Position numbers and translations under genes: made by a program. A stretch of 64,000 bases of DNA from an uncultured Saprospiraceae bacterium (GTDB lineage: Bacteria > Bacteroidota > Bacteroidia > Chitinophagales > Saprospiraceae): NCBI GenBank assembly GCA_963837505.1, contig CAWINN010000006.1:30826-94825 (forward strand), written 5' to 3'. Below the pieces are notes generated by a model, which worked only from the letters and a program-made list of their open reading frames with translations, searched no databases and was not told the origin of the DNA. Every line of letters begins with the position of its first letter. The first letter of the stretch is position 1. Of this stretch, positions 3,116 to 64,000 are shown piece after piece.

Positions 3116-3445
3116 TATCCAATATATTTTGATATTCACGAAAACTCACGACTCATGCTTCGACCTGCTTATGCTCAACCTTGTGCTACAGCTCAGCAAC
3201 CGCGATTCATGAAAACTCACTACTCACGATTCACGATTCACGATTCACGGAAACTCACGATTCACGACTGACGATTCACGGAGACTCACGACTCACGATT
3301 CACGATGACGATTCACATCGGATCACGACAACTCACGACTCACGACTCACCACGCCCACTCACGACTCCACTACGTCACGACTCACTGCTCACGACTCAC
3401 GACTCACTACTCACACTCACTACTCACCACTCACCACTCAAAAAC
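3116..3445. repeat. Heptanucleotide tandem array (CACGATT/CACGACT)n containing one copy of the conserved ~50-nt element (3154-3204, reverse orientation)
   Basis: Direct reading. The array is the reverse complement of the (AATCGTG)n arrays at 51.8-52.5 kb. It generates the artefactual HDSRLTIHDSR ORFs. Confidence 0.9.
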
Positions 3446-3961: not shown

Positions 3962-4049
3962 CCTTACTCCTTACCCCTTATTACTTACTACTTACTACTT
4001 ACTACTTACTACTTACTACTTACTACTTACTACTTACTACTTACTACTT
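3962..4049. repeat. Heptanucleotide tandem array (CTTACTA)n, about 12 copies
   Basis: Direct reading. The array lies between convergent gene ends 3912 and 4069. Confidence 0.9.
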
Positions 4050-4068
4050 ACTACTTACCCTCTTCGTT

Positions 4069-5106
4069 TTAAGCCATCTTTATCCCTTGCTCCCTGTAAT
4101 AATCAGCAAGCTGTCGGACCTTTCCTTCAAACTGCTGCACAAACCAATCATCATAATAGGCTAAGTGGAAACTGGCTAAATCCGGTTGTTGCAGGCAGGA
4201 TATAATCGTGTTACCAGCTATGATACCGGACCATAGCGCATTAAAAATCCCCTGGCCGGCAGCGGGATCTAATATGCCCGCAGCATCACCACAAAGCACA
4301 ATACCTTCGCTGCATACCGGGCGATACATTCGCCATCGCATATTAGCTACCTCCACCTTTCCTACGGAGACCCAGTCTTTTATTTCCTCAGGAGGCAGAA
4401 AGGTTCTCTCCCCTTTTAAACTCAATCTTGTCCATGCACAATAATCTGGCGGCTGCGGAGCTAACCACGTCCAACCCTGTTGACCCGGAATAAAATGAGC
4501 CGCATTTTGATCAAAAGGAAATGGCTCAACCCATTTTGAAATGCCGGTCCAACACACTAAGGGAGGTGAGAAAAATTGCCTCTTCCATTTTAATTTCTTT
4601 CCCGCTATGGCTTTGTTTCCCGAGGCATCAATGATGTACTTCGCATACCATTCTTGCGATCCGGTTTTTATCCCCACCACTTTTTCCTTCTCCAGAATAA
4701 AATCTTCCACCTTTTCATTAAACAGGACCGAGACTCCTGATTTTTGAATACGATGCAGTAATTGCCAATTAAATATTTCCCGATTAATATGCCTGCCTTC
4801 CCATATTCCATTTTCATCCTGTCCCAGCGGTGCATACGTGTGGCCCGTATAAATGCCGGCATACGTGGATAACGTAGCTGCTTCCTCTGCACCGGCAGCC
4901 CCTATTTTTAGAAGAAGGGAAGAAACACCGGGATGAATACTTTCCAGTGGCGCCGGAGTGGAAACTGTCCATTCACTTTGTTCAGTCTCCGGCGTAACGA
5001 TCATGACTTTCAGGCCGTTCCTGGCACAGGTAGCTGCAGCAGCACAGCCGGCAGGACCGGATCCAATAACGATAACATCCGAGACCGGCAATCCAGCATT
5101 CGTCAT
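4069..5106 (-). CDS. FAD-dependent oxidoreductase (halogenase/geranylgeranyl-reductase-like fold); candidate LodB-like flavoprotein
   Basis: N-terminal dinucleotide-binding motif VIVIGSGPAGCAAAATCARNG. Second FAD motif CGDAAGILDPAAGQGI. It lies immediately downstream, on the same strand, of the 888-aa gene. Confidence 0.75.
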   Translation of the reverse strand: MTNAGLPVSDVIVIGSGPAGCAAAATCARNGLKVMIVTPETEQSEWTVSTPAPLESIHPGVSSLLLKIGAAGAEEAATLSTYAGIYTGHTYAPLGQDENGIWEGRHINREIFNWQLLHRIQKSGVSVLFNEKVEDFILEKEKVVGIKTGSQEWYAKYIIDASGNKAIAGKKLKWKRQFFSPPLVCWTGISKWVEPFPFDQNAAHFIPGQQGWTWLAPQPPDYCAWTRLSLKGERTFLPPEEIKDWVSVGKVEVANMRWRMYRPVCSEGIVLCGDAAGILDPAAGQGIFNALWSGIIAGNTIISCLQQPDLASFHLAYYDDWFVQQFEGKVRQLADYYREQGIKMA

Positions 5107-5136
5107 TGGTCATTCGTCATTCGTCAAAAAGTAATG

Positions 5137-21900: not shown

Positions 21901-22072
21901 CGGTAATCTGTGTTCAGAAATCGGTAGGCAGTAGGCAGTAATCGGTAATCAGTGTTCAGTAATCAGTAATCGGTAAGCAGTAATCGGTAATCAGTGTTCA
22001 GTAATCAGTAATCGGTAAGCAGTGGGCAGTGGCAGTAGGCAGTGGGCAGTGGGCAGTATTCGGTAATCGGTA
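21901..22072. repeat. Heptanucleotide tandem array (CGGTAAT/CAGTAAT/GCAGTGG variants) with an internal ~49-nt duplication
   Basis: Direct reading. The array lies between the start of the 1251-aa gene and the stop of the tricorn gene. Confidence 0.9.
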
Positions 22073-27837: not shown

Positions 27838-27896
27838 GCTCAGCCTCAGCCTCCAGCCTTAGCCTTAGCCTTAGCCTCAGCCTTAGCCTTAGCCTG
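27838..27896. repeat. Hexanucleotide tandem array (GCCTTA/GCCTCA)n
   Basis: Direct reading. It belongs to the same hexamer family as the array at 38207-38262 in reverse complement. Confidence 0.9.
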
Positions 27897-36084: not shown

Positions 36085-38290
36085 TTATAAAATAATAATT
36101 CGTTTCCGATAGGTTATCCCCTCCTGGTGAATGATCAGGGAATACACTCCGGCATTCAACCTGGAAATATTGACAGACTCGTTCTGACCTACATTTGATT
36201 TTTCCAAAACTAATTTTCCATCCATGGTAAACAGCAGGAGTTGAAATGAAGCATTTACATGTAATGGTAAGGCCATTTTAATTTCATCCCGTGCAGGATT
36301 TGGCCAAACTAACATTTGAGGGTCCGCCTGGATATCTTTCGTTCCCGTTAAAATCAACACGCTCAAATAGAAAGTATCCGATTGGCATTCATTACTGATG
36401 ATTAAGGTCGCCTCATACGCTCCGTCATTGTATTGATGAACCGGGTTTTGTTCCTCGCTCATGTCTCCGTCTCCGAACAACCACAGGACATGGTCAACTG
36501 CCCCAAGGGAGGTATTGGTAAATGTAACTACCTGCCCTTCCTGAGTAAAGGTGGCATCTGCTGATAACTCAGGACTTCCCAGGTGGTTCACCATTTGCTG
36601 TACCCCTTCGCTCATATTATAGTACGTTCCGCTGGGTGTACGTTGTAAATTCATCGCCCGGACCATATAGGTGATGTCCCCTTCAAAAGCAAGACAGGAA
36701 TCAGTATATTCCTCTTTGGTGATTGGGTCAGCGTTGAGGCGAATGAAGTCCTCCTCATTTGCACCTTTGCGATAGACATTGTAGCCCATGATTGAATCCG
36801 GTGAAGGCTCCCAGGTTAACCGGACATGGTAGCCTGCATTGGATACATCCAGTTTGGAAACCGGGGCAATGATATCATTACGCAACGTCGGATCACCCAT
36901 CAGCCCGATGCTTACGAAGCGGGCACCATAACTCGCGAAATAAGTACTGCTGTTATTTTGCGTGGTCCGAGCACAATAGCCGATCGTTTCGCCCATGGCC
37001 ATTTGATGAAACACCCAATGTGGTCTTCCGCTCCAGGCATTAGTCAGGGTCAATCCCTGGGCCAGCGGTGCGCGCAGGAAATTGTTCTGCGAATCCCAGT
37101 CCCCGAAATAACTGCCGAATAACATGGTGAACACAGATTGTGTGTGAGAATTGGCAAAATCTGCGGTGCTGCCAATGCCGCCGGCGCCCTGGAACCATCC
37201 GCCACCACAACCATAGGACCATAAATAACTACTGTCGGCCATAGTGGTGAGATAATCACTGGCTGTTACCCTTTCAGGACTGACAATAGGACCGATGTTT
37301 TTATATCCGCTGGAAGCGAAGGCTTCTCCACTGAAATAGCCGAAATTATCATCTATCAAACCCCTTGACATGGGTGTAAACAATTTCTGCCGAAAGGCGT
37401 GATCTTTATTTAAATAGTTACGCAGCAATTCCACTTCACTGGCAGCGAAGGCAGGCATGTTGGCAAAATCAACGCGACCTATTTGCAATTCTATGTCACT
37501 TGGAATCAAACTTTGATCAAATTTTCCATCTCCGGGAATATTGCGATTGCGTACATCACCGGCCACTGTATCATTGACCGTGACATCAGTCCAGGTACCG
37601 TTCATGTCGCCGTAATAGGTATCCGTAGGCCACGCACCCAGATGATCGGGGTGACCATCAGGATTCAGTTCTCCACTGTACGGGACAGGCACATGACCGA
37701 GGATAAATACGCACTTTGCTTTCGGGCTGCTGGCATCGTATACTTGTTTGATTTGTGTTTTCACTTCAGTTGCTGAAGCTGAGCGATCGGCTTCAATGGT
37801 GGTTACCCGCCATCCATCTCCTTCAGCATCCTTGATCCATTGATCTGTTTCCGGTTGAAGGGAATCCACCATCGTCCGGTCTACGACGAGAATGAGATTT
37901 CCTCTTGACTCTACCAGGGGCACTTCAATGCCTGAATTGATATAACCATAGCCGGTGTAAGCAGCTGCTGATCGTATCACTCTGTATTCGTAGCTGGTCC
38001 CGATGCTAACCGTTGAATCAATGAAGGTGGTTGCATCTCCTGTTAGTGTTCCTATGGTTCCACTCCAGTTAGTGGAGTTTTTTGGTTTTCTGGCTACCGT
38101 GTATTGTGTAGCTCCTGCATTAGGAATCCAATGCAGGGTAATGCGTGGAGGATTTTTCTGGACTTCAGCACTGAGTTCTACGCTGGCATCCTGGCAGGAT
38201 TGGGAGTAGCAGAGGCTGAGGCTGAGACTGAGGCTGAGGCTGAGAGCTGAGGCTAAGGCTGAGGAAATATTTAGGAGAGAGTGATTTCAT
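36085..38290 (-). pseudogene. Secreted FN3 + caspase-fold (gingipain/C25-like) + PKD protein with T9SS CTD. The 5' end is frameshifted inside a hexanucleotide repeat (or the assembly has an indel)
   Basis: The reading frame of 36085..37980 stays open upstream to 38286 (..ALASALSLSLSLSLSLCYSQSCQDASVELSAEVQKNPPRITLHW..) but has no start codon there. ATG at 38290 (MKSLSPKYFLSLSLS...) is in the -1 frame and terminates at 38165. One 7-nt unit (CTGAGAG, 38240-38246) interrupts the 6-nt array. Downstream motifs: ILGHVPVPYSG, SYGCGGGW, a PKD domain, and a VWPNPARDEI tail. Confidence 0.6.
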
Positions 38291-38331
38291 GGCGATGGAT
38301 TGAGTGGTTTTCAAAGATATGTTTTCTATGG

Positions 38332-38487
38332 CCACAGGTACAACCTGTGGCAAAGGATGTTGGATCCCTTCGGGATGCGCCACGGGTACAACCCGTGGGT
38401 GATAATGTTGCATCCCTTCGGGATGCTGGTAAGATCCCTTCGGGATCATTCTCTTATCCTTCGGGATCAATCTCTTATCCTTCGGGA
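38332..38487. repeat. Array of 7 short GC-rich stem-loops from two families (CCACRGGTACAACCYGTGG and GATCCCTTCGGGATC), including a 20-nt tandem duplication
   Basis: Hairpins at 38332-50, 38364-76, 38380-98, 38410-26, 38433-47, 38456-67 and 38476-87. The A>G change in one arm is matched by T>C in the other. Confidence 0.85.
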
Positions 38488-40936
38488 TCATTGGACAGAC
38501 AGGGTGATTTTTTGTTCAATCAGGCCGGGGGAGGTTGCTTTGACTTCGATATTTCCTGGTGTGTAAGATGCACGAAGGATCAGCATCGCTTCTCCGTAAA
38601 AGGTCTTTATGTGATCGCTTTGAAAGGATTCCATGGCTTGTGGATTTCCGTTGCCGACACCGGCGATCGATCCTGCGCCTGAAATCTCCAGGCGGATATC
38701 ATTATCCGCAGCGGGACATACATTACCGTCTTCATCGGTCACTTGAATAGTTACATAAGACAAATCAAGTCCATCGGCATGAATGGTTTTCCGGTCCGTC
38801 ATAAGCTTAATCGCATATGGCTTACCTGTCGTGACTATTTTTTCCTCTCCTATTTTCACCCCCTCTTTGTACGCCACTGCTTTCAATTCACCGGGTTGAT
38901 AAGTCACATCGTTCCATCTCAGGCGAAATCGTTCTGTGGATTTTGGTGAGTCCGGAACTTTACATTTTGTCCCCAATGATTTTCCATTCAGAAAAAGTTC
39001 AGCACAATCTCCGCTGGTGTACACAAACACGGGAATGGTTTTTCCTTCCATACCCGGCCAGGTCCAATGTGGTAAAATATGAATGGTCGTGTCCTGTTGA
39101 TCCCAATAACTTTTATAGAGATAATAGCGATCCTTGGGCAAGCCGACCAGATCGAAGATGCCGAAGTAGGAACTTACGGAAGCTTCTTTATCTGTCATTC
39201 CCATTCGCCTGACGACCTGCATTATCGTAAGGCGTAGGTTCGCCGAGATAATCAAAACCTGTCCAGACAAATTCACCGGCGACATAATTTTCTTCCTGCT
39301 GCCACATGAAATCATCATCCGGAATCTCTGCCCAATCCGGTGCATTCAGATCGTAGGAACTGACTTGCAACGATGTCGTAAAATCGGTTTTCTTCTCAGG
39401 GAGGGGCCATTCATAAAATCCTCTTGTGCTCACCGTCGATGCGGATTCTGAGATGATCACTGCCTTATTGGGTTCCAATTGACGGGCGAGATCATAGCGG
39501 CGTCCATAATTCCAGCTATGCACATCGTAATAATCAAAGTGACGGAGAGCGGCACTGTTACGACTATCACAAACTAAAGTGACCGGACGGGACATGTCAT
39601 AGTGTCGAACCGCATTGACCATCGTCCGGAGTTTTTCAAAGCCACCATTTTTATTCCATTGCACATCCCCGATTTCATTGCCGACGCTCCAGAGAAAAAT
39701 GCAGGGATGATTGCGATCGCGCATGACAAAATTCCGAACATTTCGATTCGAGAAGGATTCGAAACCGGTAGTATCCAAAATGTCTGCTTTACGATCGTAT
39801 TTATCAAAAATCTCATCCAGTACGAGGATACCCATTTTATCACACAGCTCCAGCAGTTCGGGCGCGGGACAGTTGTGGCTGGTCCGGATGGCATTGCATC
39901 CCATGGATTGTAACAACTCCAGCTGGCGTTGCATGGCGCGGGGATAAAATGCTGCGCCCAGTGGACCCTGATCGTGGTGAAGACATACGCCTTTCAGTTG
40001 CACGCGGTGGTCGTTGAGATAAAAACCGTCATCGGAGGTGAATCGAATCGACCTTACGCCGAAAGGAGTCGAATACTCATCCAGCACCACATCATTCTTT
40101 CGCACGAAGGTTTTCAACGTGTACATCACCCCGTGATTGATTTCCCATCGGTCGGGATTTGTGAGGGTGATCGTGCCTTCAAAATTTTTAGCAGCATTTG
40201 CGGAAAGGCTTCCTTTACTACTAATGGAAGAAACCATATTTCCATTTGGGCTATATATACTTTGTTCAATTTCTATATCCTCCGCTACTGCGGCAGATTG
40301 ATTAACAATCGTGGTAATGAAGTTTACGCTGGCATAGTTTGGTTTAATAACAGGCGTCGTGACTTGTGTACCCCAGATATCCACATGAACCGGATTGACG
40401 GCGATCAATTGGACCTTGCGATATATGCCGGCTCCGGGGTACCATCGGCTGTCATGTTGACGTGTATCCGCGTGGATGGCGAAAACATTTTTATCCTTCC
40501 CTTTGACCTGGTCGGTGATATCGATATAAAAGGAATTATAGCCGTAGTCCCATTTTCCCGTGAGTACTTCGTTTACATATACTTGTGGGAAAGCCATGAC
40601 GCCATCGAAAAGAAGAAAGATTCGTTTCCCCTGCATGGAAGGCGGCATGGTCCAGGTGTACCGGTACCAGCCTTCCCCTTTCCAGGGAAGTTTCGCGGTA
40701 TTGCCATCGCCATCGGGATCAAACGGGCCGGTGATGGCCCAGTCGTGAGGAATCGAAATGGATTGCCAGTCGGATTCATCGCAATTGATGCTGGCTGCAT
40801 TTTCATTGGGGCCTGAATAAAATTTCCATCCAGTAGTCAGGGTTTGTATTTCCCGTGGTTGCGCACGAAGGGGAAATGAAATGCAGGTACAACTTATCCA
40901 AAAGGCAAGCACCATATTTCGAAGGAAAAAAGTCAT
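38488..40936 (-). pseudogene. Glycoside hydrolase family 2 (beta-galactosidase-like), split by a 1-nt frameshift near 39195-39215
   Basis: ORF 39188..40936 carries the signal peptide, sugar-binding and TIM-barrel parts (NAIRTSHNCPAPE, NHPCIFLWSVGNEIG, GEFVWTGFDYLGEPTPY). ORF 38488..39345 continues in another frame with SSYFGIFDLVGLPKDRYYLYKSYW and the Ig-like C-terminal domains. Confidence 0.8.
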
Positions 40937-42647: not shown

Positions 42648-43370
42648 TTACTTCGGCATTGAAGGACGCACTTCAATTTTACTTGGCAGGGTGCGCGGGT
42701 TCATCTTCAACAAATCAATGACGATCTGGCCGATATCTTCCGGTTGTATTTTCCAGTCATCTTCAGTGGAAGGAATATGATGATTGAAATGAGTGGCTAC
42801 TGATCCTGGCATGATGGTGCTCACTTTGATGCCATATTTACGGAGATCGAGCATAGCGGCCTGTGTAAAACCTACGAGACCAAATTTACTGGCGTTATAA
42901 GCGGCTCCATTGGCAAAGAAATTAGTTCCGGCGAGACTGGCTATGGTGATGAAATATCCTTTGCTTTGTTTAAGTGCCTCAATGGAGGCTTGCAACGAAT
43001 AGAAAACGCCAGTGAGATTGGTATCGATGATCTCATGCCATTGATCGTGGGGTATGGTTTCGATGGGGCCGAAGTAGCCAACGCCGGCATTGGCAATCAC
43101 GACGTCAAGCGATTTCCATTGCTCTGTAATGTTTGCCACGGCTTTCTGCTGTGCAGCAAAGTCACGTGCATCTGCCTCTATTGCAAGAGCATCAGGTGCT
43201 CCAAGCTTTTGCAATTCATCGGCAGCCTGTTGAGCGTCGGCCAGATGGCGGCTGGTAATGGCCACTTTCATATGCTCTGCGGCCATGGCTTTGGCAATGC
43301 CAAGACCGATGCCTTTGGAACCTCCGGTGATTAATGCAGTCTTTTGTTGAAGTGGAAGAAGTGTGCTCAT
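42648..43370 (-). CDS. Short-chain dehydrogenase/reductase (SDR) family oxidoreductase
   Basis: TGGSKGIGLGIA cofactor motif, NAG motif (IANAGVG) and catalytic YNASK. Confidence 0.85.
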   Translation of the reverse strand: MSTLLPLQQKTALITGGSKGIGLGIAKAMAAEHMKVAITSRHLADAQQAADELQKLGAPDALAIEADARDFAAQQKAVANITEQWKSLDVVIANAGVGYFGPIETIPHDQWHEIIDTNLTGVFYSLQASIEALKQSKGYFITIASLAGTNFFANGAAYNASKFGLVGFTQAAMLDLRKYGIKVSTIMPGSVATHFNHHIPSTEDDWKIQPEDIGQIVIDLLKMNPRTLPSKIEVRPSMPK

Positions 43371-43400
43371 AGGGGTGAAATTAGGGAGAAAGGAGCAGAG

Positions 43401-43455
43401 AGTATGAGAGGTATGAGCGGTATGAGCGGTATGAGCGGTATCAGCAGTATGAGAG
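43401..43455. repeat. Nonanucleotide tandem array (GGTATGAGC)n
   Basis: Direct reading. It begins about 30 nt upstream of the SDR start codon. Confidence 0.85.
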
Positions 43456-43529
43456 GGACGAGAGGAAGTCAGGATTATTATACAATTAGCAGCTGTTGAG
43501 AAAGAATTGAGTGTTCGTCAATCGTCAAT

Positions 43530-44380
43530 CGCGGTTGCTGAACTGTAGCACAAGGTTGAGCATAAGCAGGTCGATGCATTGACGCTTATGGAAAAAGAGT
43601 TGGCCTCTTTGCTTGCGGAAAACTCACCCCCATCCCCTCTCTTTAAATTTTGACTTTCGGAACGGAAAAGTTTTTCGCAGAAGAGAGGGGAGTCATATCT
43701 CCCCCTCTATTTTGGCACATCAATTCGCATTTCTGCACATTCATTTCGAAAAGAGAGGGGGGCGGGGGGTGAGTTAATACAGGCCGCTGATTTTCGCCAT
43801 GTTGCTGAACTGTAGCACAAGGTTGAGCATAAGCAGGTCGATGCATTGACGCTTATGGAAAAAGAGTTGGCCTCTTTGCTTGCGGAAAACTCACCCCCAT
43901 CCCCTCTCTTTAAATTTTGACTTTCGGAACGGAAAAGTTTTTCGCAGAAGAGAGGGGAGTCATATCTCCCCCTCTATTTTGGCACATCAATTCGCATTTC
44001 TGCACATTCATTTCGAAAAGAGAGGGGGGCGGGGGGTGAGTTAATACAGGCCGCTGATTTTCGCCATGTTGCTGAACTGTAGCACAAGGTTGAGCATAAG
44101 CAGGTCGAAGCATTGACGCTTATGGAAAAAGAGTTGGCCTCTTTGCTTGCGGAAAACTCACCCCCATCCCCTCTCTTTAAATTTTGACTTTCGGAACGGA
44201 AAAGTTTTTCGCAGAAGAGAGGGGAGTCATATCTCCCCCTCTATTTTGGCACATCAATTCGCATTTCTGCACATTCATTTCGAAAAGAGAGGGGGGCGGG
44301 GGGTGAGTTAATACAGGCCGCTGATTTTCGCCATGTTGCTGAACTGTAGCACAAGGTTGAGCATAAGCAGGTCGATGCAT
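43530..44380. repeat. 267-bp tandem repeat, 3 near-identical copies plus a terminal partial copy; noncoding
   Basis: Identical 67-aa artefact ORFs at 43643, 43910 and 44177 show an exact 267-nt period. Each unit is the ~46-50-nt conserved element plus a ~155-nt segment bounded by ~24-nt inverted repeats (AACTCACCCCCATCCCCTCTCTTT ... AAAGAGAGGGGGGCGGGGGGTGAGTT) with a central 11-bp hairpin. Confidence 0.9.
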
Positions 44381-44479
44381 GAATCGTGAATTGTGAGTGT
44401 TCGTGAGGCGTGAATCGTGAGGCATGAAACGAAGTCCGAACTTAGCCTTTTGTCCGCCTGTTAAAAAAAACAGAAAAAA

Positions 44480-44925
44480 CGGTAACATTTAGGAATCTCG
44501 GGACACTTACACCTGGCAGGGGTTTTCGACGAAATCTAAACGATAAAGCGTAAGGTCCTCCTTATGTCCCGTCCTGAACTTGAAAAGTCCTTAATATCGG
44601 TGTTTGGCAACCGCCTTTGGTCTTACCTCTCCCTGGTCCTGAAAAAATAATGCCGAATAAACGGTAACATTTCGGTATCTCAAGACACTTACATGTGGCA
44701 GGGGTTTTCTACGAAATCTAAACGATAAAGCGTAAGGTCCTCCTTATGTCCCGTCCTGAGCTTGAAAAGTCCTTAATATCGGTGATTGGCAACCGCCTTT
44801 GGTCTTACCTCTCCCTGGTCCTGAAAAAATAATGCCGAATAAACGGTAACATTTCGGCATCTCAAGACACTTACACCTCGCAGGGGTTTTCGACGAAATC
44901 TAAACGATAAAGCGTAAGGTCCTCC
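44480..44925. repeat. 182-bp tandem repeat, about 2.5 copies; noncoding, directly upstream of gene 45021
   Basis: CGGTAACATTT recurs at 44480, 44662 and 44844, an exact 182-nt period. The copies differ by scattered point substitutions. The third copy diverges after GTAAGGTCCTCC into the upstream region of the lipocalin-like gene. Confidence 0.9.
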
Positions 44926-45020
44926 GTATACCTGCTCGTCAGCTATAACCTCCTCCATCACGGGTCTTTAGTCCCTCGTCACCATCAAATTGCTTAATTT
45001 GAGCGCACAATCCACCGATT

Positions 45021-45389
45021 ATGCTGAATTCCCGAATTGCCACATTGACTATTTTTACATTCCTTTTCCTGGTCTCGTGTGATGACGACAAACAAAATAA
45101 ACTCATCGTCGGTCACTGGACAGGCGTAGAGTGGCTGGAGGAAGGCGCCCCCTCCATTTACACTCCTGCAGATGCCTCGTTTCAATTTGATTCCACCGGC
45201 AACTATGGCTTCACTTATGCCGGGAATACCGAAAATGGAAAGTATTATGTAAGGAACCATCAATTATTCACTACGCCGGAAGGGGGTATCAAAATGATGG
45301 TCAAGGTGATCAAACTGGATCAGGATACGTTGCGGTTTGATATGAATCGCGGAGGGAAAGCAGAACGGTTAACGCTTATAAAAAAATAG
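45021..45389 (+). CDS. Lipocalin-like lipoprotein
   Basis: Lipobox FLFLVSCDDD. LIVGHWTGVEW...GKYYV.NHQLF...MVKVIKLDQDTLRF matches the lipocalin-like domain pattern. It is distantly similar to 3481..3912. Confidence 0.7.
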   Translation: MLNSRIATLTIFTFLFLVSCDDDKQNKLIVGHWTGVEWLEEGAPSIYTPADASFQFDSTGNYGFTYAGNTENGKYYVRNHQLFTTPEGGIKMMVKVIKLDQDTLRFDMNRGGKAERLTLIKK

Positions 45390-51820: not shown

Positions 51821-51822
51821 TG

Positions 51823-52520
51823 AGTTGTGAGTTGTGAGTGGTGATGTGAGTCGTGAATCGTGAATCGTGAATCGTGAGTTTTCGTGAATCGTGAATCGTG
51901 AATCGTGAGTTTTCGTGAATCGGGTGAGCTGAGTTGTGAGCATAAGCGGTGAATCGTGAATCGTGAGTTTTCGTGAATCGTGAATCGTGAATCGTGAGTT
52001 TTCGTGAATCGCGGTTGCTGAGCTGTAGCACAAGGTTGAGCATAAGCAGGTCGAAGCATGAATCGTGAGTTTTCGTGAATCGTGAATCGTGAATCGTGAG
52101 TTTTCGTGAGTCGCGGTTGCTGAGCTGTAGCACAAGGTTGAGCATAAGCAGGTCGAAGCATGAATCGTGAATCGTGAATCGTCAGTCGTGAATCGTGAGT
52201 TTTCGTGAATCGTGAATCGTGAATCGTGAGTTTTCGTGAATCGTGAATCGTGAATCGTGAGTTTTCGTGAATCGCGGTTGCTGAGCTGTAGCACAAGGTT
52301 GAGCATAAGCAGGTCGAAGCATGAATCGTGAGTTTTCGTGAATCGTGAATCGTGAATCGTGAGTTTTCGTGAATCGTGAATCGTGAATCGTGAGTTTTCG
52401 TGAATCGTGAATCGTGAATCGTGAGTTTTCGTGAATCGTGAATCGTGAATCGTGAGTTTTCGTGAGTTTTCGTGAGTCGTGAGTCGTGAATCGTGAGTGG
52501 TGAGTTTTCGTCAGTCGTCA
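51823..52520. repeat. About 700-nt heptanucleotide array (AATCGTG)n with a 31-nt higher-order period and three copies of the conserved ~50-nt element
   Basis: Direct reading. Elements lie at 52010-52060, 52112-52162 and 52273-52323. The array produces three overlapping artefactual ORFs (HDSRFTIHDSRKLTIH...). Confidence 0.95.
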
Positions 52521-61426: not shown

Positions 61427-64000
61427 ATGAAACGACTGTTAATTCTCTCTACTGTCTTGTTTTTTGGCGCCAGTGCCTTCGCCTGCCAGGCAGGTTTCAA
61501 CTGGGAACAACTCCCCAATACGCTGACCATACATTTTACCAGTACCTCTACGAGCGATCACGAGATTGTATCGTATGTATGGCATTTTGGTGATGGGCAA
61601 GACGGGGATGGCCAAAATCCTAACCATACCTACGCCCAGTCGGGCACCTATAACGCCTGCCTGATCATCACGGATAACGTGGGTTGTGTGAGTGACATTT
61701 GCCACATGGTTATGGTGGCTGCCGTATCGGGCGGGTGCCAGGCAAATTTTGGATATCAACAATTGCCCGGAACGCTGACCATCAATTTCAACAGCACCTC
61801 CACCAGCGAACATGAAATCATTTCCTATTTGTGGGATTTCGGTGACAATCATAGCGCCGACGGACCTAATCCAAGTCACACTTATTCCGAACCAGGAAAT
61901 TATACCGTTTGCCTGACCATCACCGATAATACCGGATGTGTGGATGAGGAATGTAATCTGGTTGTTGTTCAGCCCATTACTCCCGGCAATTGCGAAGCCG
62001 GTTTCAACTGGGAACAATTGCCGAATACCCTCACCATTCATTTTGCTAATACATCCACGAGTGAACATGACATCATCTCCTATATGTGGAATTTCGGGGA
62101 TGGACATAACGGTGACGGACAAAATCCAAATCATACCTATACACAATCCGGTACCTATACGGTATGTCTGACGATCACCGACAATACCGGATGCACAGAC
62201 TCTGTGTGCCACCAGGTGACGGTGGCCCCGGTTTCCTCCGGTGGTTGCCAATCTGATTTTGGATACCAGCAATTAGGGGGAACACTAACTATAAATTTCA
62301 CCAGTACGTCCACCAGTGAACATGAGATCATTTCCTATCTATGGAACTTTGGTGATGGACATACCGGCGACGGACCCAATCCAAGTCATACTTATTCCGA
62401 ACCTGGAAATTATACGGTTTGTCTGACGATTACGGATAATACCGGATGTGTGGATGAGGAATGTAACCTGGTCGTTGTTCAGCCCATTACGCCCGGCGAT
62501 TGTGAAGCCGGATTTACCTGGGAGCAAAGTCCTAATACGCTAACCATTAATTTCACCAGTACCTCGACGAGCGATCACGATATCACTTCCTACTTTTGGA
62601 ATTTCGGCGACAATCATACCGGTGACGGACAAAATCCTCATCATACCTATGCTCAACCCGGCACCTATACGGTTTGCCTGACGATCACGGATAATACCGG
62701 ATGCTCGAGTACGGTTTGTCATGAAGTGGTGGTTGAACAGATAGCTCCCGGAAATTGCATGGCCGATTTCAACTGGGAACAACTCAACAATACCTTAACC
62801 GAACATTTCCATAGTCTTTCTACCAGTGAACATGATATCACTTCTTATCTATGGGATTTCGGAGACGGGCATACCGGCGACGGACAAAATCCTTATCATA
62901 CGTATGATCAAGCCGGCACGTATACCGTATGTCTGACCATCACGGATAATACCGGGTGCACCAGCACCACTTGCCATGAGGTAGTGGTCAATCCTATTAC
63001 TCCGGGCAATTGTGAAGCTGGTTTTAATTGGGAACAATCCCCCAATACCCTGACCATTAATTTCAATAGTACGTCAACGAGCGAACACGACATCATCTCT
63101 TATATGTGGGATTTCGGAGACGGCCATAATGGTGACGGACAAAATCCTCACCATACATATGGAGAACCCGGCACCTACACCGTATGCCTGACCATAACCG
63201 ATAACACCGGTTGCACCAGTACGGTATGTCACGAAGTAGTGGTTGAACAAATAACTCCGGGCGATTGCCAGGCCGAGTTCAACTGGGAGCAACTCACGAA
63301 TACGCTCACAGAACATTTCCACAGTCTCTCTACCACGCAGCATGATATCACTTCCTACCTGTGGGACTTCGGAGATGGTCATACAGGAGATGGAGCCTTT
63401 CCGTATCACACGTATGATTCTGCAGGCGTATATACGGTTTGTCTGACTATCACGGACAATTCAGGTTGTGTCAGCACGATATGCCATGAGGTGGTGGTGA
63501 ATCCGTTTACTCCGGGCAATTGCCAGGCCGGATTCAACTGGGAGCAATATTCCGGTATATACACTGTCCATTTTACCAATACCTCCACGAGTGAACATGA
63601 GATCATTTCTTACCTGTGGAATTTTGGTGACGGCCATACCGGTGACGGACAAAATCCGAATCACATCTATGCCATGCCGGGCACGTACACAGTATGCCTG
63701 ACCATCGCGGACAATACGGGATGCACCAGCACCTTCTGCCAGGATATAGTGGTTCAACAAGTTCCGCCGGGAGATTGCCATGCAGAGTTTAACTGGGAGC
63801 AGTCCAATAATTCACTGACTGAATATTTCCATAGCCTATCTACCACGCAGCACGATATCACATCCTACCTGTGGGATTTTGGAGATGGCCACATGGGCGA
63901 CGGAGCAAATCCTCACCATACATATGAGCAACCTGGCACCTACACCGTATGCCTGACCATCACCGATAATTCAGGATGTACCAGTACGACATGCCATGAG
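61427..64000 (+). CDS. Secreted protein made of at least 10 tandem PKD-like repeats (3' partial, runs off the window)
   Basis: ATG at 61427 gives MKRLLILSTVLFFGASAFA. The frame then stays open to the window end, so it is absent from the ORF track. About 85-aa units: FNWEQLPNTLTIHF.STSTSEHDI.SY.WDFGDGH.GDGQNP.HTY..PGTYTVCLTITDNTGC....C..VVV. Confidence 0.85.
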   Translation, partial: MKRLLILSTVLFFGASAFACQAGFNWEQLPNTLTIHFTSTSTSDHEIVSYVWHFGDGQDGDGQNPNHTYAQSGTYNACLIITDNVGCVSDICHMVMVAAVSGGCQANFGYQQLPGTLTINFNSTSTSEHEIISYLWDFGDNHSADGPNPSHTYSEPGNYTVCLTITDNTGCVDEECNLVVVQPITPGNCEAGFNWEQLPNTLTIHFANTSTSEHDIISYMWNFGDGHNGDGQNPNHTYTQSGTYTVCLTITDNTGCTDSVCHQVTVAPVSSGGCQSDFGYQQLGGTLTINFTSTSTSEHEIISYLWNFGDGHTGDGPNPSHTYSEPGNYTVCLTITDNTGCVDEECNLVVVQPITPGDCEAGFTWEQSPNTLTINFTSTSTSDHDITSYFWNFGDNHTGDGQNPHHTYAQPGTYTVCLTITDNTGCSSTVCHEVVVEQIAPGNCMADFNWEQLNNTLTEHFHSLSTSEHDITSYLWDFGDGHTGDGQNPYHTYDQAGTYTVCLTITDNTGCTSTTCHEVVVNPITPGNCEAGFNWEQSPNTLTINFNSTSTSEHDIISYMWDFGDGHNGDGQNPHHTYGEPGTYTVCLTITDNTGCTSTVCHEVVVEQITPGDCQAEFNWEQLTNTLTEHFHSLSTTQHDITSYLWDFGDGHTGDGAFPYHTYDSAGVYTVCLTITDNSGCVSTICHEVVVNPFTPGNCQAGFNWEQYSGIYTVHFTNTSTSEHEIISYLWNFGDGHTGDGQNPNHIYAMPGTYTVCLTIADNTGCTSTFCQDIVVQQVPPGDCHAEFNWEQSNNSLTEYFHSLSTTQHDITSYLWDFGDGHMGDGANPHHTYEQPGTYTVCLTITDNSGCTSTTCHE

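Follow-up and report, generated by a model that had tools for sequence, protein, structure and literature searches.

Array and module at the locus

We analysed a 64-kb window (the whole stretch of DNA, 64,000 nt) from an uncultured Saprospiraceae bacterium, where an intergenic spacer carries a tandem array of near-identical 267-nt units. Each unit combines a 46-nt element, E, with a 155-nt palindromic module, X, a gene-less member of the AACTCACCCC...GGGGTGAGTT family of elements. The spacer is 1650 nt long (43371-45020) and separates two divergent genes, one for an SDR oxidoreductase on the minus strand (42648..43370) and one for a 122-aa lipoprotein-like protein on the plus strand (45021..45389), both reading away from the array. 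It also has 9-mer repeats and a 182-bp tandem repeat.

Tandem Repeats Finder (TRF) reports a single array at 43534-44380 with a period of 267, 3.2 copies, 99% matches and a score of 1687, and the direct base-by-base comparison gives exact limits of periodicity, 43534 being the first base and 44380 the last. The array, to which no strand is assigned, consists of three 267-nt units and a terminal partial copy that is exactly the 46-nt E, in the order E-X'-E-X'-E-X'-E. Units 1 and 2 are the same, while unit 3 is one base off, with A at 44109 versus T at 43575, 43842 and 44376. The first-pass annotation had described three units and a partial fourth, a single substitution among them and a recent amplification, and all of these stand with 1 difference in 847 nt.

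The 267-nt unit is composed of E (46 nt), a linker (41 nt), the module (155 nt) and a second linker (25 nt). An element of about 50 nt and a module of about 155 nt had been recognized before, but the two linkers had been missed and the element is 46 nt. By direct comparison, E (GTTGCTGAACTGTAGCACAAGGTTGAGCATAAGCAGGTCGATGCAT) occupies 43534..43579, 43801-43846, 44068-44113 (with the substitution at 44109) and 44335-44380, always on the plus strand. The 41-nt linker from E to the module (43580..43620, plus strand, repeated at +267 and +534) was delimited by the sequence and the unit fold, in which its first ~15 nt make an imperfect inverted repeat with the E 3′ end around the centre ATGCAT; it has no match in any locus retrieved. 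The 25-nt linker from the module to the next E (43776..43800, plus strand) ends in GATTTTCGCCAT, which resembles the heptamer-derived sequence preceding E elsewhere.

The module X lies at 43621..43775 on the plus strand and its copies 2 and 3 at 43888-44042 and 44155-44309. Its left half-module (43621..43692), read on the minus strand, is CTCCCCTCTCT - 38-nt loop - AAGAGAGGGG-AT-GGGGGTGAGTT with a loop that we call type B, and its right half-module (43699..43775), on the plus strand, is CTCCCCCTCT - 43-nt loop - AAGAGAGGGG-GGCG-GGGGGTGAGTT with a type A loop. Between them is a strandless 6-nt centre, TCATAT (43693..43698), at the spot where longer members hold a DUF559 gene or a 25-60 nt remnant. 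Both halves match the type A and type B halves of elements in Saprospiraceae metagenome-assembled genomes. The left one resembles the left halves at the loci L010 and L135 (L numbers denote the related loci), and the right loop has an ATCA..CG(C/T)A..(A/T)TCA motif conserved in 20 other type A halves.

The outer inverted repeats of X (43621-43642 and 43754-43775) had been put at about 24 nt; they exist, at 22 nt with 86% complementarity and 111 nt apart. A predicted clean inner hairpin of 11 bp is present in a weaker form, GGGGAG-TCATAT-CTCCCC, with 6 perfect pairs or about 9 with a bulge. It is followed by a T-rich run and looks terminator-like on both strands. The four arms can really pair in two mutually exclusive ways, because the module is made of two hairpin half-modules in inverted orientation.

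The small open reading frames (ORFs) of 54, 67 and 103 aa have no Pfam match, in agreement with their earlier dismissal as non-coding. An attC-like reading of the module was rejected from its sequence, with AAC/GTT at the outer rather than the inner pairing edge and no R''/R' box pairing beyond.

Family of the module

The family is defined by its ends, AACTCACCCC-N-CCCCTCTCT ... AGAGAGGGG-N-GGGGTGAGTT, and has a common layout of AACTCACCCC-N2-4-CCCCTCTCT [loop 1] AGAGAGGGG - centre - CCCCTCTCT [loop 2] AGAGAGGGG-N2-4-GGGGTGAGTT. The module X fits this layout exactly with a loop 1 of 38 nt, the centre TCATAT and a loop 2 of 43 nt. Loop length is 4-10 nt in the majority of copies, and a Saprospiraceae-type subfamily has loops of 34-45 nt. 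Over its full length X is 77% identical with L010:3097-3254, scoring 83.5 versus 33 ± 4.8 for the controls with shuffled interiors. The terminal inverted repeats AACTCACCCC and GGGGTGAGTT are kept in 83 complete elements.

We searched with the pattern AGAGAGGGG-N2-4-GGGGGTGAGTT, which has 20 specified bases and spans both arms. The end pattern occurs in at least 120 stretches of metagenome contigs and at least 119 stretches of GTDB species genomes, versus ~3 expected by chance according to our estimate. The matches listed in the two collections make up the 239 motif loci considered below.

Among the matches listed, the family spans about 20 phyla. They include Bacteroidota (several Saprospiraceae and Ca. 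Opimibacter), Ignavibacteriota, Calditrichota, Latescibacterota, Zixibacteria, Cloacimonadota, many Patescibacteria, Margulisbacteria, Cyanobacteria, Bacillota, Spirochaetota, Armatimonadota, Acidobacteriota, Omnitrophota and some Proteobacteria. Some genomes have several loci (for example, OY762937.1, JADKHH01 and JALHRR01). Within the 64-kb window the element is found only in the array, and BLAST of X against the plasmids and phages of cultured strains gave no match. In IMG/VR, the end motif occurs in 8 stretches from 6 viral-contig records, with 3 or fewer copies per stretch (L254-L261).

The motif is mostly intergenic, with 19% of its centres inside ORFs of 150 aa or more versus 82% of the background bases. 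Tandem arrays overlap the motif at 12 of the 239 loci with periods of 54-166 and 1.8-3 copies, and family arrays are also present in L130, L135 and a Pseudanabaena plasmid. The array in the window is thus the largest example seen of a recurrent habit. In short, its members are dispersed intergenic elements with conserved termini and a tendency to duplicate locally in tandem. No description of it was found in the open-access literature, either by sequence strings or by the themes of DUF559, Vsr-like and EDxHD proteins.

DUF559 gene as the recurrent cargo

Two families recurred when the ORFs close to the motif were compared all against all, generic ABC ATPases and one small protein. The small protein is DUF559 (PF04480; Pfam E 1e-28 to 1e-33), a Vsr-like PD-(D/E)XK endonuclease with 3HRL as the nearest solved structure. 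Near the motif at the listed loci, no further nuclease or transposase family is recurrent. DUF559 belongs to the Vsr fold group together with the EDxHD homing endonuclease I-Bth0305I (PMC3239194, PMC3424549, PMC9403480).

By tblastn, DUF559 lies within ~250 nt of the exact motif at 14 of the 239 loci, and at most of the 14 it is placed between a left and a right module so that its sense strand reads AACTCACC -> GGTGAGTT. When two modules are 300-3000 nt apart, the cargo is DUF559 in 7-8 of 11 pairs and no other cargo recurs. The gene in the centre of full-length members measures ~400 nt. Its catalytic-type motifs (RQ.P, ADF.C and E.DG..H) are intact in 20 of 20 cargo proteins. The 64-kb window has no DUF559 gene.

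The Saprospiraceae contig L135 holds the two forms side by side, a gene-less copy of 164 nt (4011-4174) and a DUF559-bearing copy of 815 nt (4263-5077). They share the left and right halves and differ by an internal segment of ~650 nt with DUF559, the deletion joint being at a short direct repeat.

The association was seen also from the side of the gene. Six DUF559 homologues picked by protein similarity alone all have variant hairpin-plus-tail modules within ~60 nt, of the form CCC(C)T(T)CTCT-loop-AGAG(A)AGGG-N-GGG(G)(A)TGAGTT. On the plasmids of cultured cyanobacteria, modules flank 3 of 3 DUF559 genes, and those on a Synechocystis B12 plasmid are canonical-like. The other two have another sequence in the same nested layout, GCCCCCTA-N-CCCCC-loop-GGGGG ... 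CCCCC-loop-GGGGG-N-TAGGGGGC, which suggests that the enzyme clades and the end sequences co-vary. In pAQ6 of Picosynechococcus PCC 7002 (L267) and a plasmid of Pseudanabaena ABRG5-3 (L268), the DUF559 genes are amid arrays of the GCCCCCTA-type palindrome with tandem gene-less copies.

Other contexts of DUF559 are between ResIII and methylase genes, between dnaE-like and imuB-like genes, and beside an IS110. DUF559 genes are enriched among the predicted 'programmed inversion' targets (PMC9881135), which is consistent with the inverted repeats flanking them.

Insertion boundaries and target sites

Filled and empty sites can be compared in the type II cas operons of contigs resembling Ignavibacteria and Melioribacter. 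The cas1 and cas2 genes are adjacent in L265 and L266 with gaps of 5-29 nt. In L245, L242 and L093, the last cas1 codons contain the exact start of extra DNA, at AACTCACC or its variant; its other end, in L242 and L093, is at GGGGGATGAGTT and directly abuts the TTG start of cas2. On this comparison of filled with empty sites, the insertion boundaries are placed at the conserved termini. The presence and absence at homologous sites with precise boundaries, as looked for with homing endonucleases, is thus found at cas1-cas2, in lineages that have diverged.

The DUF559 cassette between cas1 and cas2 of type II (cas9) operons was seen in L242, L245-L248 and L093, and it supplies the stop codon of cas1. 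DUF559 is in the same PD-(D/E)XK superfamily as Cas4.

The first-pass annotation had held that flanking target-site duplications would mark an ordinary miniature inverted-repeat transposable element (MITE). None was found in the 83 complete elements, with direct repeats of n = 2-8 at two offsets, except for palindromic CATG flanks in one subfamily. The element ends conserve AA|CTCACC...GGTGAG|TT and there is weak further palindromy outside. A search for empty sites among the 239 loci gave too few homologous pairs.

Element E and repeats of the lineage

Outside the array, E occurs once on the minus strand at 3155..3200, embedded in ACTCACG/ATTCACG heptamers, and three times on the plus strand in a cluster at 52014..52322 (52014-52059, 52116-52161 and 52277-52322) with heptamer spacers of ~56 and ~115 nt. 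A degenerate copy is near 51923-51945. All the outside copies are inside TCGTGAA-type heptamer arrays and always have the same orientation with respect to the heptamers. At 52 kb, the cluster demonstrates that an E-spacer-E arrangement, the kind from which the array may have arisen, exists elsewhere in the window. The array itself is bordered by degenerate heptamer tracts on the plus strand, of the TCGTCAA/TCGTGAA type directly on its left (43508..43533) and of GAATCGT/GAGGCGT directly on its right (44381..44428).

An exact 26-mer of E has no match in 185,579 species genomes or in IMG/VR, so E was rejected as a widespread element. By its sequence distribution, E is a lineage-specific repeat. 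A CRISPR array with E as its repeat was also rejected, since the spacers are three identical 221-nt segments or, at 52014-52322, heptamer runs; this was judged on the repeats and spacers, and cas genes in the window were not looked for.

The intergenic spacers of the window are packed with short tandem repeats, which are heptamers (TCGTGAA/ACTCACG, CTTACTA, GTAATCA and GCAGTGG), hexamers and 9-mers. Such spacers are at 3214-3440, 3963-4058, 5097-5126, 21901-22058, 27842-27895, 38212-38264, 43397-43465 and 51821-52505. Relatives have the same habit with other units, (CCCTTCCG)n in L253, (TTCATTC)n in L135 and (CCTCAG)n in L130. The heptamers fill intergenic spacers like the short tandemly repeated repetitive (STRR) sequences of heterocystous cyanobacteria, although the phylum here is Bacteroidota (Saprospiraceae-like) and the heptamers are others. 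The element E embedded in them has no described counterpart.

The named best matches of the SDR protein are from Saprospiraceae. In the syntenic L253, whose SDR is 81% identical, the spacer is 181 nt and made up of (CCCTTCCG)n repeats, versus 1650 nt in the window. In L252, whose SDR is 87% identical, two additional genes lie in between and the SDR gene has just 123 nt upstream of it. Neither E nor the element is in the spacers read in these two (upstream of SDR, and in L252 the other gaps inspected). The repeat-rich spacer including the array is therefore recent and lineage-specific.

Three other repeats were noticed. The 182-bp tandem repeat adjoins the array at 44463-45008 in 3 copies at 100, 92 and 66% identity; in each copy ~80 nt, with the near-palindrome TTTCG(T/A)CGAAA among them, are homologous to the single-copy intergenic L252:1127-1207. 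Possibly the repeat is an operator or promoter element that has been duplicated ahead of the 45021 gene. At 61772-63999 are 255-bp repeats with ~69% identity that reach the window edge and, from their sequence, resemble repeats encoding PKD-like domains in a large surface protein. TRF repeats at 1772-1926 and 38331-38492 have a 29-nt unit in 5 copies, and 48-nt and 21-nt units with hairpin-like GCATCCCTTCGGGATGC.

Discussion

Judged by its sequence, X is a gene-less internal-deletion form of the family whose long members carry DUF559. The cut of its centre to 6 nt makes it a non-autonomous derivative. We consider it probable that the array is a tandemly amplified derivative of this kind, originating from a DUF559-associated mobile element and amounting to non-coding DNA of the selfish or junk type. 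The array would then have no dedicated cellular function.

Its origin can be conceived in two steps. In a Saprospiraceae-like genome, a gene-less 155-nt X would have come between two E copies within a heptamer-rich intergenic spacer. The flanking E direct repeats would then have undergone unequal crossing-over or slippage that converted E-X'-E to E-(X'-E)3, by RecA-type unequal exchange between the 46-nt E repeats or alternatively by hairpin-promoted slippage. That the array begins and ends with E, which also occurs independently, fits an unequal exchange between a pair of E copies that originally enclosed just one module. The single difference among the units means that the expansion is very recent or that homogenization of the copies is ongoing.

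More tentatively, and with odds that we put somewhat below even, there may be a class of mobile elements, so far undescribed, to which X and its relatives belong as non-autonomous partners. The DUF559 nuclease would recognize the nested G/C-tract palindromic ends and copy itself and gene-less derivatives between intergenic sites in a REPIN/RAYT- or homing-like manner in about 20 phyla, with the enzyme clades and the ends co-varying. Such ends may be AACTCACCCC/CCCCTCTCT in Bacteroidota, Ignavibacteriota and other phyla, a similar form on the Synechocystis B12 plasmid, and GCCCCCTA/CCCCC in other cyanobacteria. The nuclease could drive the spread from the conserved end modules by break- or nick-induced copying and gene conversion, 'homing' into related palindromes, or gene-less copies could be mobilized in trans like REPINs by RAYTs.

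By analogy, the element most resembles in its working the REPIN/RAYT system or a free-standing homing endonuclease with miniature derivatives. The repetitive extragenic palindromic (REP) sequences and REPINs with REP-associated tyrosine transposases (RAYTs), and the bacterial interspersed mosaic elements (BIMEs) of E. coli and Pseudomonas, are likewise short intergenic palindromes in many copies, whose inverted doublets form long hairpins. There too, an enzyme gene is flanked by the repeats and far outnumbered by gene-less copies, local tandem clusters arise (BIME-2) and target-site duplications are absent. However, the gene here encodes a DUF559 Vsr-like PD-(D/E)XK nuclease and no HUH/Y1 (IS200-like) RAYT, and it is inside the element between the two half-modules. 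The termini here are AA|CTCACCCC...GGGGTGAG|TT with no GTAG/CGTC tetranucleotide, and the end modules are shared by about 20 phyla, while a REP is confined to one species or genus. With no Y1 enzyme and no GTAG tag, the family falls outside REP/RAYT.

The free-standing homing endonucleases such as the EDxHD I-Bth0305I with a Vsr-like core share with the family a small gene for a nuclease of the Vsr/DUF559 fold group (PMC3239194, PMC3424549), and the gene is wedged between operon genes, here cas1 and cas2 or ResIII and methylase. The lack of target-site duplications is expected if the element spreads by recombination-dependent, homing-like copying. Differently from them, the DUF559 gene is not in an intron or intein, and the conserved palindromic modules flanking it are abundant also without the gene.

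Like X, the MITEs (Correia/NEMIS, Nezha and RPE) are non-coding sequences of ~150 nt with terminal inverted repeats and stable hairpins, mostly intergenic, and arise as internal-deletion derivatives of longer gene-carrying elements, a form shown by the L135 pair. But the partner here is not a DDE or other known transposase, and the ends, in place of simple inverted repeats, have a double palindrome that is nested. The absence of target-site duplications and transposase excludes the membership. The first-pass alternatives had been a MITE amplified in tandem or an array of RNA genes; the former was close to the truth in that X is MITE-like, but it is not a classical MITE, and RNA genes are unsupported.

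The IS200/IS605 elements and their palindrome-associated transposable element (PATE) derivatives have hairpin-forming ends, no target-site duplications and gene-less miniatures in common with the family. They differ in that no TnpA(Y1) or TnpB gene is present here and that the left and right ends here are mutual reverse complements. The lack of TnpA excludes this membership.

Several points weigh against the preferred reading of the array as derived from a DUF559-associated mobile element. There are no target-site duplications in the 83 complete elements and no known transposase, and to our knowledge DUF559 has never been shown to mobilize DNA, and it could be a passenger. In the 64-kb window the element is confined to the array and no DUF559 gene is present, so that mobility in this genome can only be presumed. 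The cas operons compared are diverged (Cas1 ~72% identical), so the three filled sites may stem from one old insertion. The ancestral E-X'-E state is deduced from the array boundaries, the 22-nt end module could be conserved across phyla through a host function rather than selfish spread, and a functional transcript would be compatible with the strong folding of both strands.

It is unlikely that the family has been domesticated like REP/BIME to serve its hosts as a bidirectional terminator, an mRNA stabilizer or a site for a nucleoid protein or gyrase, with the array tuning its two divergent neighbours and DUF559 being a maintenance enzyme or irrelevant. The strong intergenic bias, the conservation of the end sequence across phyla, the terminator-like inner hairpin, the position in a divergent promoter region and the analogy with BIME-2 arrays of REPs would all suit this role. 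Yet the relatives with an orthologous SDR gene manage without the element, and the copies here sit between divergent genes, where terminators are unneeded. Moreover, the insertions overlapping the cas1 and cas2 ends look opportunistic rather than regulatory, and the near-identical copies indicate a recent expansion instead of a long-maintained array.

Quite unlikely is that the modules spread independently of DUF559, by an unidentified transposase, host recombination at hairpins or phage transfer, and that DUF559 is a frequent passenger or a preferred neighbour or target. The gene is at only ~6% of the listed motif loci and absent from the window, it lies beside a complete module rather than inside in L051 and L245, and the motif is present in the 8 IMG/VR stretches from 6 contigs. 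On the other hand, DUF559 is the sole recurrent cargo, with only generic ABC ATPases recurring besides it near the motif. Its orientation relative to the element ends is mostly constant (exceptions such as L035), all six of the gene-first sample have modules, and the cyanobacterial modules that differ in sequence and keep the layout suggest the co-variation of enzyme and ends.

Very unlikely is that the units are genes for a structured small RNA or cis-regulatory RNAs, the arms being an alternative-pairing switch and the array raising the RNA dosage. The unit does fold far better than its shuffles with z = -4.4 on each strand, the two exclusive pairings exist, the inner hairpin with its T-rich run looks like a terminator and the loop motifs are conserved among the type A halves. 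However, the equal folding of both strands is expected of palindromic DNA, and the same ends bracket a protein-coding gene.

The direct checks for RNA were negative. Rfam gave 0 matches at the gathering threshold in the window and 0 at E <= 10 in 43300-45100, the Rfam matches in related loci were rejected as spurious miRNA-hairpin matches, and no tRNA or tmRNA was found. By RNAalifold on 21 type A half-elements, an alignment of one half-module subfamily only, 0 of 11 predicted pairs had changes on both sides, and no compensatory pair appeared. The stems are conserved as primary sequence across phyla without covariation, and the two arms often have linker trinucleotides that do not complement each other. 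The arm mismatches of T:G (79) and C:A (61) are balanced and reveal no strand preference, which makes the wobble test uninformative or negative.

An assembly artefact, that is a mis-assembled or over-expanded repeat, is scarcely credible: the near-identical 267-nt units are comparable to short-read lengths and the source is apparently an environmental assembly, but an internal substitution marks unit 3, assemblers usually collapse rather than expand such repeats, and comparable family arrays are in independent assemblies.

The array of the window, itself a routine product of direct-repeat recombination, is of interest for its building block. This is a very widespread, sequence-conserved palindromic element, of which annotation pipelines make spurious small ORFs with peptides like 'THPLAPSLKKRGG'. 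As its members recur on short contigs and in tandem arrays, we infer that they probably contribute to assembly breaks.

The element is consistently linked with DUF559, a large family of proteins whose function is unknown. Should DUF559 mobilize it, the domain would gain a biological role and a new enzyme class would join the short list of those driving small bacterial repeats. The recurrent cassette spot between type II cas1 and cas2 would also deserve attention. Such mobilization may also explain why DUF559 genes are enriched among the predicted 'programmed inversion' targets (PMC9881135).

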